Virus record (IMG/VR): IMGVR_UViG_2675903425_000024 | Direction: 5' to 3' (one strand) | DNA length: 9,366 nt | Source: a virus | Lineage: Duplodnaviria > Heunggongvirae > Uroviricota > Caudoviricetes | Shown: positions 312 to 7,509 of the stretch, piece after piece | How the letters are laid out: each line of letters begins with the position of its first letter | Numbering within the stretch: the first letter of the stretch is position 1 | The notes under the pieces: generated by a model | Told to the model about the DNA's origin: nothing | The model's database searches: none | Seen by the model: only the letters and a program-made list of their open reading frames with translations | Program-made: the position numbers and the translations under genes

Positions 312-1007
312 ATGAAAGAGATGATTTCTGTCGATCATGAAATATCCATGAGTAGTCTGGATTTTCTGAATAACATTATTAATCCAGCCCGGGCAGAAGC
401 CGGAGAAGTCCCTCATGAACCGCGTAAGTTTCTTGCAAAAATTGAGGATGAGCTAGAGCTTGATGGAACCGGAAAAAAATTCCGGTTAAACAATAACCAG
501 ACAAGAACGGCATACTATGATCTGGATTTTGACCAGATGATGCTCGTTGGCATGAGGGAGTCAAAGGCCGTTCGTCGTTCTGTGCTGGCAAGACTCAAAG
601 CGATGCATGGTATTCAGATCCCCCGGACTTTACCTGAGGCGTTGCGATTTGCGGCAAAACTGGCTGAACAGAAAGCAGTGCTGGAAAATCAACTGGCAAT
701 AGCAGCGCCGAAGGCTGAATTTGTTGATAACTATGTTGAAGCATCTGGTCTGATGGGATTCCGGGAAGTTGCTAAGTTACTCGGTATCAAAGAAACCGAT
801 TTCCGGCTGTTTTTGTTGGAGAACGGAATAATGTATCGCCTCGCTGGAAAAATGACGCCTTACTCGCATCACCTGGATGCGGGGCGGTTTAGCGTGAAAA
901 CGGGCGAGGCGGGCAATGGTCATGCTTTTACGCAGGTTAAATTCACCCCAAAAGGTGTTCAGTGGATTGCTGGTCTGCTTGCTGCATGGAGAGCTACCGC
1001 AGCATGA
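312..1007 (+). CDS. Phage antirepressor, AntA-like N-terminal domain plus KilA-C (ANT) C-terminal domain
   Basis: 231-aa ORF with an AGGA Shine-Dalgarno at 301-304, 7 nt before the ATG. The C-terminal half (AAPKAEFVDNYVEASGLMGFREVAKLLGI...MYRLAGKMTPYSHHLDAGRF...) matches my recollection of the KilA-C/ANT domain, and the N-terminal part (KFRLNNNQTRTAYYDLDFDQMMLVGMRESKAVRR) resembles the AntA/AntB domain. Recalled from memory, not searched. Confidence 0.85.
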   Translation: MKEMISVDHEISMSSLDFLNNIINPARAEAGEVPHEPRKFLAKIEDELELDGTGKKFRLNNNQTRTAYYDLDFDQMMLVGMRESKAVRRSVLARLKAMHGIQIPRTLPEALRFAAKLAEQKAVLENQLAIAAPKAEFVDNYVEASGLMGFREVAKLLGIKETDFRLFLLENGIMYRLAGKMTPYSHHLDAGRFSVKTGEAGNGHAFTQVKFTPKGVQWIAGLLAAWRATAA

Positions 1008-1099
1008 AGATGATAAAAACGGACTGGAAATTTTTGCTGGTCTGGCTGATTCCGTTTTTATGGGTGGTTGCCCGGTTAATTACTGCTATTAAGGGGTAA
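1004..1099 (+). CDS. Tiny hydrophobic peptide (31 aa, one predicted TM helix), hypothetical
   Basis: ATG at 1004 overlaps the antirepressor stop (ATGA, 1004-1007). Translation MKMIKTDWKFLLVWLIPFLWVVARLITAIKG, stop TAA at 1097-1099. GGAGAG lies about 10 nt upstream. Below the size cut-off of the ORF track; no homology claim. Confidence 0.3.
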   Translation: MKMIKTDWKFLLVWLIPFLWVVARLITAIKG

Positions 1100-1101
1100 A
1101 G

Positions 1102-1233
1102 ATGTCAGACAAACTCATAATGCTGGCGAAGGGCCTTTGTGTAATCGTCGGTATTTCATTTTCACTAATGCTGGTTGTTCTTTTTCTTTCCATAACCTGG
1201 ATGGCGTTGACTTCGGCAGGGCTGGTGGGGTGA
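1102..1233 (+). CDS. Small membrane protein (43 aa, one predicted TM helix), hypothetical; possible lysis-associated peptide
   Basis: Strong SD AAGGGG (1091-1096) 5 nt before ATG 1102. Translation MSDKLIMLAKGLCVIVGISFSLMLVVLFLSITWMALTSAGLVG, stop TGA 1231-1233. Starts 2 nt after the preceding tiny ORF and ends 11 nt before the putative Rz start. Confidence 0.45.
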   Translation: MSDKLIMLAKGLCVIVGISFSLMLVVLFLSITWMALTSAGLVG

Positions 1234-1244
1234 GCATAAACCGA

Positions 1245-1594
1245 ATGCTTTCCGCGTNNNNNNNNNNNNNNNNNNNNNNNNNNNNNNNNNNNNNNNNNNN
1301 NNNNNNNCGTTATTCTGCTGGTGGTCTGTGGTGCGCTTAGTCTGGGGCTGAATCATTACCGCGATAACGTCATCACCTACAAAGCGCAGCGCGATAAAAA
1401 AGCCAGAGAGCTGGAGCTGGCAAACGCAACCATTACTGATATGCAGGTGCGCCAGCGCGATGTTGCTGCGCTCGATGCAAAATACTCGAGGGAATTAGCC
1501 GATGCGAGAGCTGAAAATGANNNNNNNNNNNNNNNNNNNNNNNNNNNNNNNNNNNNNNGCACAGGACTATATCCGCACTCAGTGCCTGAACTAA
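1245..1594 (+). CDS. Rz: Rz-like inner-membrane spanin (i-spanin), interrupted by two N-runs; embedded Rz1 probably hidden in the masked part
   Basis: After the first N-run, frame 1 reads [70 protein letters not shown], closely matching my recollection of lambda Rz. After the second N-run, frame 2 reads [11 protein letters not shown] then TAA (1592-1594), resembling the lambda Rz C-terminus (...QKYINEQCR). Candidate start ATG 1245 (MLSA...) precedes the first N-run. Frames do not connect across either N-run, so the N lengths are not the true lengths. Confidence 0.7.
1258..1307. other. Run of 50 N (masked or assembly gap)
   Basis: Directly visible; falls in the N-terminal region of the Rz-like gene. 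Confidence 0.99.
1521..1558. other. Run of 38 N (masked or assembly gap)
   Basis: Directly visible; falls in the C-terminal half of the Rz-like gene, where the embedded Rz1 lipoprotein gene would be expected. Confidence 0.99.
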
Positions 1595-3850: not shown

Positions 3851-5508
3851 TACCTGTGTGGAGCACGGCCTGCCCGGACTGGGCAGAGCGCCTGAAAAAG
3901 GGGCTGTCGATTATTCCGGCTCCGATTTATCCGGAGCAGGCCGCACATGCCCTGGCGATTTTTAAACAACTGCGGATTGTGGATGCACCGGGCAGCCCGA
4001 CGTTCGGGGAGTCCTGCGCACAGTGGGTGTTTGACCTGGTGGCGGCCCTGTTTGGCTCCTACGATGCGCAGACCGGTGTACGCCATATCAAGGAAGTTTT
4101 TATCCTTATCCCCAAGAAAAACAGCAAGTCCACGCTGGCTGCCGGGATCATGATGACGGCGCTGTTACTGAACTGGCGGCAGGCGGCGGGCTACACCATT
4201 CTGGCCCCGACCGTGGAGGTGGCGGCTAACGCCTTCAACCCTGCCAGGGATATGGTACGACGGGACGATGATCTGGATGACCTCTGTCAGGTGCAGACAC
4301 ATATCCGGACCATCACCCACAGGGTGACGGACACCACCCTGAAGGTGGTGGCTGCCGATCCGAATACGGTATCCGGTATCAAGTCCGTGGGGACGCTGAT
4401 TGATGAACTGTGGTTATTTGGCAAGCAGTACAAAGCGGAGGACATGTTACGTGAAGCCATAGGCGGCCTTGCCTCCCGCCCGGAAGGGTTTGTGGTGTAT
4501 ACGACCACCCAGTCGAATGAGCCGCCAGCCGGGGTGTTCAGACAGAAACTGCAGTACGCCCGGGATGTCCGTGACGGCAAAATTCATGATCCGCACTTTC
4601 TGCCGGTGATTTTTGAGCATCCTCCTGAAATGGTGGAAAGCGGGGCTCACCTGCTGATGGAAAACCTCGCCATGGTTAACCCGAATCTCGGTTATTCGGT
4701 GGATGAGGCTTTTCTGTACCGGGAGTACCGTAAAGCCCGGGAGGCTGGTGAGGAAGCATTTCGTGGCTTCATGTCAAAACATGCCAATGTGGAAATTGGT
4801 CTTGCCCTGCGTTCTGACCGCTGGGCGGGTGCGGATTTCTGGGAGCAGCAGGGCAGGCGCGTCAGCCTGGACGATATCCTGCAGCGCGCTGATGTGGTGA
4901 CGGTGGGGATTGACGGCGGGGGCCTGGATGATCTGCTGGGAATGTACGTGATTGGCCGTGACAGGGAAACCCGCGAATGGCTGGGCTGGGGCCATGCCTG
5001 GGCGCATGAAACCGCGGTGGTCCGACGGAAGAGCGAGGCGTCCCGGTTTCAGGATCTTGTTGCCTGTGGAGATATGACCATTGTCCGGCGTGTCGGGGAT
5101 GACACGGCGGAAGTGGCGGAATATGTGCGTCGCATTCATGAGGCTGAGTTACTGGACCATATCGGTATTGACCCGTCAGGGGTGGGGCAGATTCTGGATT
5201 CACTGGCGGAAGCCGGGATCCCCGACGGAATTGTGGTGGGGATAAGCCAGGGCTGGAAACTGGGCGGGGCCATTAAAACCACCGAGCGCAAACTGGCTGA
5301 AGGGGTGCTGGTGCATGGTGACCAGCCCCTGATGGCCTGGTGTGTCGGCAATGCCCGGGTGGAGCCTAAAGGTAACGCCATTCTTATCACCAAACAGGCC
5401 AGTGGACGGGGAAAAATTGACCCGCTGATGGCGCTGTTCAATGCGGTCTCCCTGATGTCCCTTAACCCGGAACCGAAAAAGAAAGAATATGCGGTTTTTT
5501 TCATATAA
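3847..5508 (+). CDS. terL: Terminase large subunit (ATPase/nuclease)
   Basis: 553-aa ORF overlapping terS by 4 nt. Walker-A-like P-loop (ILIPKKNSKST), overall length and context typical of HK97-like large terminases. Followed by head genes. Confidence 0.92.
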   Translation: MIPVWSTACPDWAERLKKGLSIIPAPIYPEQAAHALAIFKQLRIVDAPGSPTFGESCAQWVFDLVAALFGSYDAQTGVRHIKEVFILIPKKNSKSTLAAGIMMTALLLNWRQAAGYTILAPTVEVAANAFNPARDMVRRDDDLDDLCQVQTHIRTITHRVTDTTLKVVAADPNTVSGIKSVGTLIDELWLFGKQYKAEDMLREAIGGLASRPEGFVVYTTTQSNEPPAGVFRQKLQYARDVRDGKIHDPHFLPVIFEHPPEMVESGAHLLMENLAMVNPNLGYSVDEAFLYREYRKAREAGEEAFRGFMSKHANVEIGLALRSDRWAGADFWEQQGRRVSLDDILQRADVVTVGIDGGGLDDLLGMYVIGRDRETREWLGWGHAWAHETAVVRRKSEASRFQDLVACGDMTIVRRVGDDTAEVAEYVRRIHEAELLDHIGIDPSGVGQILDSLAEAGIPDGIVVGISQGWKLGGAIKTTERKLAEGVLVHGDQPLMAWCVGNARVEPKGNAILITKQASGRGKIDPLMALFNAVSLMSLNPEPKKKEYAVFFI

Positions 5509-5571: not shown

Positions 5572-7509
5572 GTGACTCTTAAACGGGCCTGTTCCCTGCT
5601 GACGGTGAAATCCTTCAGTGAGGATGAACGGGTGATCACCGGGATTGCGTCAACGCCTTCTCCGGATCGGGATGGTGACATCCTGGAGCCGGAGGGCGCG
5701 GAGTTTGGCAGTGCGATCCCGTTTCTCTGGCAGCATGACCATTCCCGCCCGGTGGGGCAGTGTACGGTGCGCCGGGTCAGCGAAGGGCTGGAAATCACGG
5801 CAACACTGGTGAAGCCCGTACCGGATATGCCGTCGCAACTGGCTGCCCGGCTGGATGAGGTCTGGGCGGCCATTAAGACCGGGCTGGTCAGGGGGCTGTC
5901 CGTGGGCTTCCGTCCCCATGAATACACCTTTCTGGACGGAGGCGGACTGCATTTTCTGCGCTGGGAACTGATGGAGGTGTCTGCCGTCACCGTGCCCGCG
6001 AATGCGGAATGCACCATCCGGACCATTAAATCTTACGACCGCCCGTTTTCTGCCGCGTCCGGCAACCGGAAACCGGTGGTGAAAATCGCATCTTCTGCCG
6101 GCGCTGCGGCACAGTCAACAACCGTTTTTCATAAGGAAAAGACCATAATGAATATTGGCGAACAGATTAAAAGTTTTGAAAACAAGCGTGCAGCGCTGGC
6201 AGCCTCCCTTGAGGAGGTCATGACCAAAGCCGCAGAGGAAGGGCGCACGCTGGATGTGGAGGAGGAAGAGCATTACGACAACACCGCAGCGGAAATCCGT
6301 CAGGTGGATGCGCACCTGAAGCGCCTGCGTGAACTGGAAGCCGGTAAGGCCGCCACGGCGCAGCCGGTGAAACAGGCCGGTAACGGGAATGTGGCCGCGG
6401 TGGCTTCTGCGCCGGTGATCCGTGTGGAGCAGAAACTGGATAAGGGGATTGGCTTCGCCCGCTTTGCCAAATCGCTGGCTGCGGCTAAAGGCGTCCGATC
6501 TGAAGCCCTGGAAGTGGCCCGTCGTCAGTATCCGGATGACAGTCGTCTGCATCATGTCCTGAAATCGGCAGTGGGCGCGGGGACCACCACGGATCCGCAG
6601 TGGGCAGGCAGCCTGTCTGAATATCAGGAATACGCACAGGACTTTATTGATTACCTGCGTCCGCAGACCATTATCGGGCGATTTGGTCAGGGCGGGATCC
6701 CTGCACTTCGTCAGGTGCCATTCAATATCCGTGTGCACGCCCAGGTGTCCGGCGGTGCTGCCGGCTGGGTGGGTGAGGGTAAGGCAAAACCCCTGACGAA
6801 GTTTGATTTTGAATCCATCACCTTCAGTCATGCGAAGGTGTCGGCCATTGCGGTACTGACGGAAGAATTGATCCGTTTTTCCAGTCCGGCTGCTGATGCA
6901 CTGGTCCGTAATGCGCTGGCGGAAGCGGTGGTGGCGCGTCTGGATACAGACTTTGTGGACCCGAAAAAAGCCGCAGTGGCAGATGTCTCCCCGGCGTCCA
7001 TCACCCATGATGTGAAGGGCACGGCATCAACCGGTAACCCGGATGCGGATGCCGAGGCTGCGTTTGGACAGTTTGTGGCAGCAAACCTGCAGCCCACCGG
7101 TGCGGTCTGGCTGATGTCCAGCACCAATGCCCTGGCACTGTCCATGCGTAAAAATGCGCTGGGTCAGAAGGAATACCCGGACATGACCCTGCTGGGTGGC
7201 TCCTTCCAGGGGCTGCCGGTGATTGTCTCCCAGTACGTGGGTGACCAGCTGGTGCTGGTGAATGCCCCGGATATTTATCTGGCGGATGACGGCGGCGTGG
7301 CAGTGGATATGTCCCGCGAGGCATCACTGGAAATGCAGTCTGAGCCGGGCGGCGACAGTACCACGCCGTCCCCGGTGGAGCTGGTTTCCATGTTCCAGAC
7401 AGGCAGCGTGGCCATCCGTGCGGAGCGCTGGATCAACTGGCGTCGTCGCCGTACTGCGGCGGTGGCGGTGATCACCGGAGTGAACTACGGCAGTGCGTCC
7501 GGCGGCTGA
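5572..7509 (+). CDS. Prohead protease (HK97/S78 family) fused in-frame to major capsid protein (HK97 fold)
   Basis: Single 645-aa ORF with SD AGGAGG 5 nt upstream of the GTG start. The N-terminal roughly 190 aa (GIASTPSPDRDGDILEPEGAEF...WQHDHSRPVG...SAVTVPANAEC) resembles HK97 gp4-type prohead proteases. From about residue 193 (MNIGEQIKSFENKRAALAASLEEV..., coiled-coil delta-domain-like, then a roughly 400-aa body) it resembles HK97-type major capsid proteins. An internal in-frame ATG at 6148 with AAGGA 10 nt upstream could also initiate the capsid protein independently. Confidence 0.9.
   Translation: MTLKRACSLLTVKSFSEDERVITGIASTPSPDRDGDILEPEGAEFGSAIPFLWQHDHSRPVGQCTVRRVSEGLEITATLVKPVPDMPSQLAARLDEVWAAIKTGLVRGLSVGFRPHEYTFLDGGGLHFLRWELMEVSAVTVPANAECTIRTIKSYDRPFSAASGNRKPVVKIASSAGAAAQSTTVFHKEKTIMNIGEQIKSFENKRAALAASLEEVMTKAAEEGRTLDVEEEEHYDNTAAEIRQVDAHLKRLRELEAGKAATAQPVKQAGNGNVAAVASAPVIRVEQKLDKGIGFARFAKSLAAAKGVRSEALEVARRQYPDDSRLHHVLKSAVGAGTTTDPQWAGSLSEYQEYAQDFIDYLRPQTIIGRFGQGGIPALRQVPFNIRVHAQVSGGAAGWVGEGKAKPLTKFDFESITFSHAKVSAIAVLTEELIRFSSPAADALVRNALAEAVVARLDTDFVDPKKAAVADVSPASITHDVKGTASTGNPDADAEAAFGQFVAANLQPTGAVWLMSSTNALALSMRKNALGQKEYPDMTLLGGSFQGLPVIVSQYVGDQLVLVNAPDIYLADDGGVAVDMSREASLEMQSEPGGDSTTPSPVELVSMFQTGSVAIRAERWINWRRRRTAAVAVITGVNYGSASGG

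Follow-up and report, generated by a model that had tools for sequence, protein, structure and literature searches.

We analysed a 9,366-nucleotide (9.4-kb) stretch of a tailed-phage genome (IMG/VR record IMGVR_UViG_2675903425_000024), hereafter called the window, which is the late region of an Escherichia coli lambdoid prophage of the Shiga toxin 1 (Stx1) type, and focused on two very short open reading frames (ORFs) lying between the antirepressor gene ant and the i-spanin gene Rz. ORF1 belongs to a family that we call pepA, and ORF2 to a second family, pepB. We tentatively favour, at a chance that we place a little short of even, the explanation that both are translated micro-genes of the late lysis transcript encoding accessory inner-membrane peptides, and that pepB most likely tunes the membrane steps of lysis. 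What is shown is that the two genes are genuine and accessory, point the same way, are closely coupled and each encode one predicted helix. Over the region of the two ORFs, the window is 99-100% identical to Stx1-converting phages and to chromosomes of Shiga-toxin-producing E. coli (STEC).

ORF1 (1004..1099, + strand; direct reading and ORF list) encodes a 31-residue single-helix peptide, MKMIKTDWKFLLVWLIPFLWVVARLITAIKG, and terminates with TAA at 1097-1099. Its ATG (1004-1006) sits in an ATGA that also holds the stop codon of ant (1005-1007); the same frame is additionally open from GTG 962 and ATG 986, and the start of ORF1 is therefore inferred. ORF2 (1102..1233, + strand) encodes a 43-residue peptide, its ATG at 1102 being located 2 nt past the ORF1 stop. 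Reading of the sequence placed an AAGGGG Shine-Dalgarno motif at 1091..1096 (+ strand), 5 nt from this ATG, and the terminal codons of ORF1, AAG GGG (Lys-Gly), thereby double as the ribosome-binding site of ORF2. At the other end, the ORF2 stop (TGA, 1231-1233) overlaps the GTG of Rz at 1230 in a GTGA, the Rz start called by the Prokaryotic Genome Annotation Pipeline (PGAP) being ATG 1245 and not this GTG. These readings confirm what the first-pass annotation had described, namely two tandem micro-ORFs of 31 and 43 codons, 2 nt apart, the first overlapping the ant stop and the second preceded by a Shine-Dalgarno motif; the single hydrophobic stretch in each product and the stop/start junctions likewise agree with its description of translationally coupled, single-transmembrane (TM) genes just before Rz. 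Both ORFs were also said to be missing from the ORF track, and they are, but merely because of a length cut-off: ORF2 is present in RefSeq, and the annotation of phage PhiR5_1 includes both. On the + strand, neither a promoter-like nor a terminator-like site was predicted between positions 1 and 2600, and ORF1 and ORF2 are therefore expected to be co-transcribed with ant and Rz. When hydrophobic ORFs were defined as ATG-started frames of 31-60 codons on either strand with a 17-residue mean Kyte-Doolittle value of at least 2.3, ORF1 and ORF2 were the only two in the whole window, while 500 first-order Markov random sequences contained a mean of 0.06 such ORFs per window and an adjacent pair in none of the 500.

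ORF2 matched phrog_4906, a PHROG family of unknown function, over its full length (residues 1-43, E=6.6e-24). In E. coli E2863, where the region is 100% identical, it corresponds to the PGAP hypothetical protein WP_001280923.1. It has the length (42-44 residues), the core sequence (VGISFSLMLV) and the site just before Rz by which we recognise pepB. DNA resembling positions 960-1258, chiefly the ORF2 part, was found in 1703 of 5426 complete E. coli genomes, at 4599 places in total, and a protein search recovered 70 clusters at 90% identity, essentially all of them from E. coli. Full-length members measure 43-44 residues, except for annotations extended at the N-terminus, and V16-V25, the core, is invariant across 34 aligned cluster representatives. 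The family is narrow, since a hidden Markov model (HMM) scan of 1.84 billion representatives returned only 28 hits, with no remote relatives outside it. Among 18 distinct DNA variants, the ratio of non-synonymous to synonymous polymorphism (pN/pS) was 0.56 in frame versus 0.91 and 0.99 in the two alternative frames. For divergent pairs, which included pepB copies located via pepA and hence independently of the pepB search, the corresponding substitution ratio (dN/dS) was 0.26-0.53 in frame versus mostly 0.8-1.8 off frame. On this comparative evidence, pepB is a real conserved gene, forming a narrow, Escherichia-centred family.

ORF2 has one strongly hydrophobic stretch, and AlphaFold2 predicted one continuous helix from residue 2 to residue 38, with a predicted local distance difference test score (pLDDT) of 89.9. 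The basic residues of pepB lie on the N-terminal side of this stretch, and an N-in, single-pass topology is therefore predicted. C13, G17 and S21 form an invariant face of small residues along the helix. A direct homologue with the same core and the same class of position, XECs191 (MMGWLMISDKLITLVKSLCVLVGISFLVMLVAIFFSTAWRVLTLSGLVG), was detected in E. coli O157:H7 Sakai by Hucker et al. 2017, with 12.6 reads per kilobase per million (RPKM) in the lysogeny broth (LB) translatome and 0.43 as its ribosomal coverage value (RCV); the authors classed it as 'real', predicted it to lie in the inner membrane with 1 TM helix and assigned it no function (PMC5597208). It differs from ORF2 in its length of 49 residues as called (PMC5597208), in being ~65-70% identical, and in its N-terminal extension, MMGWLMI, which derives from a short-ant context. 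These published footprints provide ribosome occupancy for a homologue of pepB, and the proposed check of TM topology returned one TM stretch for each peptide, both predicted N-in. Frame conservation had been set beforehand as the result on which the genes could fall, and a synonymous excess in frame was found for both families; for ORF2, neither of the outcomes named in advance as refuting was thus obtained.

For ORF1, the match was weaker. Its C-terminal 24 residues (7-30) aligned with the 45-position profile of phrog_6632 (E=1.1e-4), and it is 81-94% identical to the C-terminal 25 residues of pepA family members, sharing their WKFxLxW motif, their TM stretch, which is strongly hydrophobic and the only one in ORF1, and their IKG or IRWW C-terminus. 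At loci without ant, the same frame spans 44-45 codons from a GTG or TTG start behind a strong AAGGGAG Shine-Dalgarno motif, a typical sequence being M-IDFSKLIRELRLMIKQLPNWKFLLVWAIPFLWVVSQLITAIKG. The N-terminal xDFSKLIRELRxM segment, the GTG/TTG start behind AAGGGAG and the upstream GC hairpin of pepA are all absent for ORF1, whose homology to pepA begins at about codon 8 (WKF...), the 3' end of ant and the residues MKMIKTD replacing the conserved N-terminus. ORF1 is an N-terminally truncated or remodelled pepA, in which insertion of ant replaced the upstream hairpin and the first ~20 codons. Divergent pepA copies (L114, L160 and L101; L numbers designate the loci compared) carry many synonymous changes, and comparison with the O104:H4 copy, restricted to codons outside the degenerate search pattern, gave 6 synonymous and 2 non-synonymous differences. 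The position of the stop is constant in divergent copies, as TAA, TAG or TGA. The pepA family is coding; that the truncated ORF1 of the window continues to function is less certain. In one pepA sub-lineage (L040-L044 and relatives, 10 of 139 copies), codon 25 has changed from TTA to TGA, and L196 carries a 1-nt insertion.

The gene order around both families is maintained over considerable divergence. At ~70% DNA identity (L114, L160), the pepA stop, with TAA, TAG or TGA, is still followed by 2 nt and the pepB ATG, and the stop of pepB still overlaps or nearly overlaps the Rz start, through an ATGA in both of these loci. In most loci pepB lies directly before Rz, whatever adjoins it upstream, be it an endolysin gene, either of two types of ant, pepA or pepC, and none was seen outside lysis cassettes among the loci compared. 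At least five types of endolysin precede the module (R21-like GH24 lysozyme, GH108, M15 peptidase, a GH19-like enzyme recognised by motif only, and an unclassified one), and the accompanying holins comprise class II holins, a lambda-S-type holin and other holin annotations. The peptides are therefore not tied to one holin or endolysin, and a specific role as an antiholin or with signal-arrest-release (SAR) endolysins is unlikely. When pepA ends in IRWW, its terminal TGG TGG TGA supplies the ribosome-binding site of the following Rz or gpW.

Two more small TM ORFs, pepC (PHROG 1115) and pepD, shuffle within the gap between the endolysin gene R and Rz. The commonest order among the IMG/VR hits is R, pepC (60 residues), pepB, Rz, and four consecutive micro-TM ORFs (pepA, pepB, pepC and pepD) stand between endolysin or ant and Rz in L005 (2580-2928) and L001 (3203-3551). 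Paralogy of pepA, pepC and pepD was suggested by eye from a shared W..P.L...A.L..A[IL]K[GS] pattern and IRWW ends; hhalign comparisons were not significant (A1 versus A2, E=0.39; A2 versus pepC, E=0.28; A2 versus pepD, probability 22%) and gave no support for homology among any of the four families. In a prophage with a GH108 endolysin (L091, 1640-1822), no Rz is evident near pepC and pepB; the gene that comes next encodes a 60-residue lipoprotein whose lipobox is LVGC and which belongs to PHROG 7528, a family of unknown function. In the older GenBank record of Stx1-converting phage phi-O153 (AY838795.1), the feature named 'Rz' at 7066-7274 covers the pepA/pepB region, and the micro-ORFs have thus been swallowed by an over-long annotation.

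The distribution of pepA is broader. Homologues were recovered from Salmonella, Citrobacter, Providencia and Cronobacter, and relatives precede spanin genes directly in Salmonella phage SPN3UB, phage CP-1639 and Citrobacter. Others follow a 965-residue ORF in Brenneria and Symbiopectobacterium, or occupy the gap that separates the genes for the baseplate spike and the baseplate wedge in myovirus-type (pro)phages, namely in Salmonella phage SEN34 (L214, 2001-2138), Pantoea stewartii (L219, 3001-3138) and Dryocola (L222, 2659-3090). Across these genera and contexts, ~65 nt are kept ahead of pepA, consisting of a GC hairpin, a T run and then CACCTTGA...CAAGGGAGAAC.T GTG, this consensus being also written CACCTTGA...AAGGGAGAAC.T GTG (L213 1930-2000; L214, L215, L216, L218-L221, L160). 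RNAalifold folded the hairpin with 14 pairs, 4 of them with compensatory changes, into a structure resembling an intrinsic terminator; this leader may act as a terminator or attenuator, or may mark a recombination boundary. The window lacks it, ant having taken its place. The recurrence of pepA relatives and their leader in varied operons indicates that pepA is not lysis-specific and behaves as mobile cargo. In Dryocola, the truncated pepA is preceded by a pepC-like ORF of 73 codons and by another TM ORF of 34 codons, showing that rows of micro-TM genes occur outside lysis cassettes too. The 34-residue peptide looked like a distant pepB, and comparison gave no support for this. In Citrobacter (L216, 3135-3540, and L101), pepA directly precedes a 93-residue protein with a TM stretch and charged residues, whose gene overlaps that of a 69-residue lipoprotein; the two look like a non-Rz two-component spanin pair, for which the only Pfam hit is a weak one below threshold, DUF6779.

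Database and family comparisons placed the peptides among uncharacterised small phage membrane proteins of late operons, a known kind. The assumption that they were unannotated did not hold, since ORF2 has PHROG 4906 and WP_001280923.1, ORF1 has its weak match to PHROG 6632 and is named 'membrane protein' (31 residues) in some NCBI records, and XECs191 has been published; as sequences, they are already in PHROGs, in RefSeq and in a published ribosome-profiling (Ribo-seq) list, without an assigned function. Pfam, NCBIfam, PADLOC and PDB sequence searches of the peptides returned no matches, the PADLOC anti-phage defence profiles matched none of pepA, pepB, pepC and pepD, and literature searches for functional studies of small proteins encoded between R and Rz yielded nothing specific.

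The first-pass annotation had pointed out that lysis-timing factors (holin, antiholin or pinholin-like) would be expected at this position, and that both peptides are smaller than canonical holins; the structural features of holins and pinholins are indeed lacking. Holins of classes I-III were taken to have 2-3 TM helices, or one TM helix and a large periplasmic domain, with a charged C-terminal tail; each peptide has one hydrophobic stretch, the C-terminal tails are KG and TSAGLVG, neither peptide matched a holin family profile in Pfam or NCBIfam, and the true holins are located upstream in related loci. Pinholins of the S21 type have two TM helices, the first of which is a SAR helix that exits the membrane, whereas the peptides have a single helix and the module also accompanies a lambda-S-type holin. 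With holins, pinholins and antiholins (lambda S105/S107, S21 68/71), the peptides share their small size and an inner-membrane place in the lysis cassette, and the small-xxx-small helix face of pepB resembles the glycine-zipper faces of holin TM helices; they differ in having one TM helix only, no charged C-terminal tail and a position downstream of the endolysin. Neither peptide has the TM helix with periplasmic coiled coil of an i-spanin or the lipobox of an o-spanin, Rz being a separate downstream gene. The nearest functional analogy would be an accessory lysis-timing protein encoded between endolysin and spanin genes, such as LysA of phage P2, a non-essential membrane protein of ~140 residues with several TM helices whose gene lies between the endolysin gene K and the spanin genes lysB/lysC. 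This resemblance is one of position in a late lysis operon: LysA is larger, has several TM helices, and shows no similarity to the peptides by Pfam or PHROG.

Other small membrane proteins of phages and bacteria offer partial parallels. Lambdoid morons (bor, lom, HK97 gp15) are small accessory genes of mobile phage cargo, whose products are often membrane-located, and type I toxin peptides such as TisB and Hok are small and hydrophobic. The pepA and pepB products resemble the morons in their nature as small accessory membrane cargo and the type I toxins in size and hydrophobicity, but they lack a promoter, terminator and antisense RNA of their own in the window, are tightly coupled to their neighbours and have no homology to them. 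No promoter was predicted on the - strand across 1004-1233. The releasin of phage Mu, gp25 (DUF2730), is a single-TM accessory lysis protein that acts on another membrane lysis protein and has a cytoplasmic domain (PMC9239132). Like it, the peptides have a single TM helix; unlike it, they have no DUF2730 or other Pfam match and no soluble domain, and they also occur with non-SAR endolysins. A role specific to releasins or SAR endolysins was excluded, as the module also follows M15, GH108, GH19-like (motif only) and another unclassified endolysin.

According to the explanation that we favour, ribosomes would pass from ant to ORF1, ORF2 and Rz through the ATGA, the stop + 2 nt + ATG and the GTGA junctions. 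Each product would be a single-pass inner-membrane helix with a periplasmic tail of ~2-7 residues; the few basic residues of each peptide lie mainly on the N-terminal side, and an N-in topology is therefore predicted. As accessory, non-essential cargo of the endolysin-Rz gap, both peptides would be made with Rz and act in the inner membrane late in infection, where pepB would most likely tune the collapse of the proton-motive force and holin triggering, or the i-spanin, through its C13/G17/S21 face. The invariance of this small-residue face, together with a linkage to Rz that is independent of holin and endolysin type, leads us to favour a generic membrane-level role in lysis. A bolder version, which we regard as improbable, holds that pepA-D are statistically unrelated single-pass micro-proteins moving as cassettes between the late operons of Enterobacterales temperate phages, in endolysin-Rz and baseplate spike-wedge gaps; pepA would travel with its own hairpin and Shine-Dalgarno leader, and pepB, bound to lysis cassettes and usually coupled to Rz, would represent a new class of lysis regulators acting on spanin or holin triggering independently of holin and endolysin type.

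Several observations weigh against a lysis function. The endolysin gene abuts Rz in lambda, phage 21 and the K-12 prophages DLP12 and Qin, without any such peptide, and the peptides are therefore dispensable for lysis. The baseplate positions of pepA relatives count here as well, as do a premature stop in 10 of 139 pepA copies and a frameshift in 1, which make pepA dispensable in at least some prophages. The constraint on pepB is only moderate, and the Ribo-seq signal on XECs191 was low and was obtained without induction, and the mapping of reads to prophages present in several copies may have affected it. Genes with no relation to the peptides, among them ant and one for a DNA methylase, also occupy the endolysin-Rz gap, as do pepC and pepD. 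Part of this evidence would suit membrane-active morons unrelated to lysis, that is, mobile late-operon cargo acting on host membrane proteins or excluding superinfecting phages, with adjacency to Rz reflecting an insertion hot spot. This alternative, which the first-pass annotation had also raised, is possible rather than probable, nearly as likely as the lysis role and, for ORF1, arguably better supported, because the pepA relatives in the spike-wedge gap and after the 965-residue ORF always carry the ~65-nt hairpin and Shine-Dalgarno unit. It is also consistent with the GC content of the two ORFs (0.41 and 0.46, versus 0.545 for the remaining window) and with the low-level translation in uninduced Sakai. 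Of the two hallmarks of morons considered, presence or absence among relatives and occurrence in unrelated contexts were observed, the peptides being absent from DLP12 and Qin and pepA occurring in lysis cassettes, baseplate operons and elsewhere, while pepB shows the presence/absence pattern only. By contrast, a promoter and terminator of their own were not predicted on the + strand between 1 and 2600, which makes expression in the lysogen doubtful, PADLOC gave no match, and pepB, which was found only in lysis cassettes, shows stop/start coupling to Rz even in lineages that have diverged.

ORF1 taken alone might instead be a decaying remnant of pepA, decapitated by the insertion of ant and still open because little time has passed, a view that we likewise consider possible rather than probable and that is compatible with any of the other explanations of ORF2. 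ORF1 is without the conserved N-terminal DFSKLIRELR segment and the hairpin and Shine-Dalgarno unit, other pepA copies are already broken, and 4 of the 5 changes within the ant-linked lineage are non-synonymous (T6M, R24Q, K30N, G31R), from which the truncated ORF1 may be drifting, a further point against a function in lysis. Yet an in-frame ATG fused to the ant stop has been kept, all 46 distinct ant-linked copies seen are intact, and the last codons are required as the Shine-Dalgarno motif of ORF2. A further alternative is a translational relay, in which translation of the ORFs would matter mainly by bringing ribosomes to Rz once cargo, ant for example, had parted it from R, the peptides themselves being incidental. 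All junctions are overlaps or 2-nt gaps, and the C-terminal codons of the micro-ORFs encode the next Shine-Dalgarno motif (AAG GGG for pepB; TGG TGG TGA; GGG GTG A before Rz), but a relay would not preserve amino acids, whereas pepB has an invariant 10-residue core with synonymous variation, a dN/dS below 1 only in frame and a fixed length, so that we judge it quite improbable. Least credible of all are chance ORFs or a non-coding RNA element, for ORF2 already largely refuted: the ORFs are short and independent ORF1 variants are few, but the random expectation, the frame-specific purifying selection and the ribosome footprints on the pepB homologue all speak against this, and an Rfam search of the region gave no match.

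The neighbouring genes complete the picture of the locus. The ant gene (312..1007, + strand) encodes an antirepressor with a KilAC domain (Pfam PF03374, E=2.7e-28; PHROG 63) and is named antirepressor in RefSeq and in phage records. Rz (1230..1594, + strand; GTG 1230, alternative PGAP start ATG 1245) is broken by two runs of N (1258-1307 and 1521-1558) that do not preserve the native length, as they correspond to ~3 nt and ~193 nt in the otherwise identical locus of E. coli E2863. Rz and any embedded Rz1 are therefore unreadable in the window, and the apparent frameshifts are artefacts; an internal deletion of Rz, first suspected, was discarded after alignment with L004 showed that the N runs merely have the wrong length. 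Downstream of Rz, a 113-codon ORF (1918-2259, + strand) encodes a protein that combines a lipoprotein-type signal (LVMGC) with a domain resembling the C-terminus of TonB, labelled 'TonB family protein' in the matching RefSeq locus, which constitutes a further cargo gene of the late region.

About one third of complete E. coli genomes carry similar DNA, mostly that of ORF2, inside prophage lysis cassettes, including those of Shiga-toxin phages, in which the timing of lysis governs toxin release. If pepB or pepA does adjust when lysis occurs or how intact the membrane stays, a textbook pathway would have components that had escaped notice, and these could offer a handle on the release of toxin. 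Should the peptides be generic membrane cargo instead, they would provide an example of micro-genes that hop between phage operons while serving as the ribosome-binding sites of their neighbours. Under either reading, the peptides are cheap to probe genetically.

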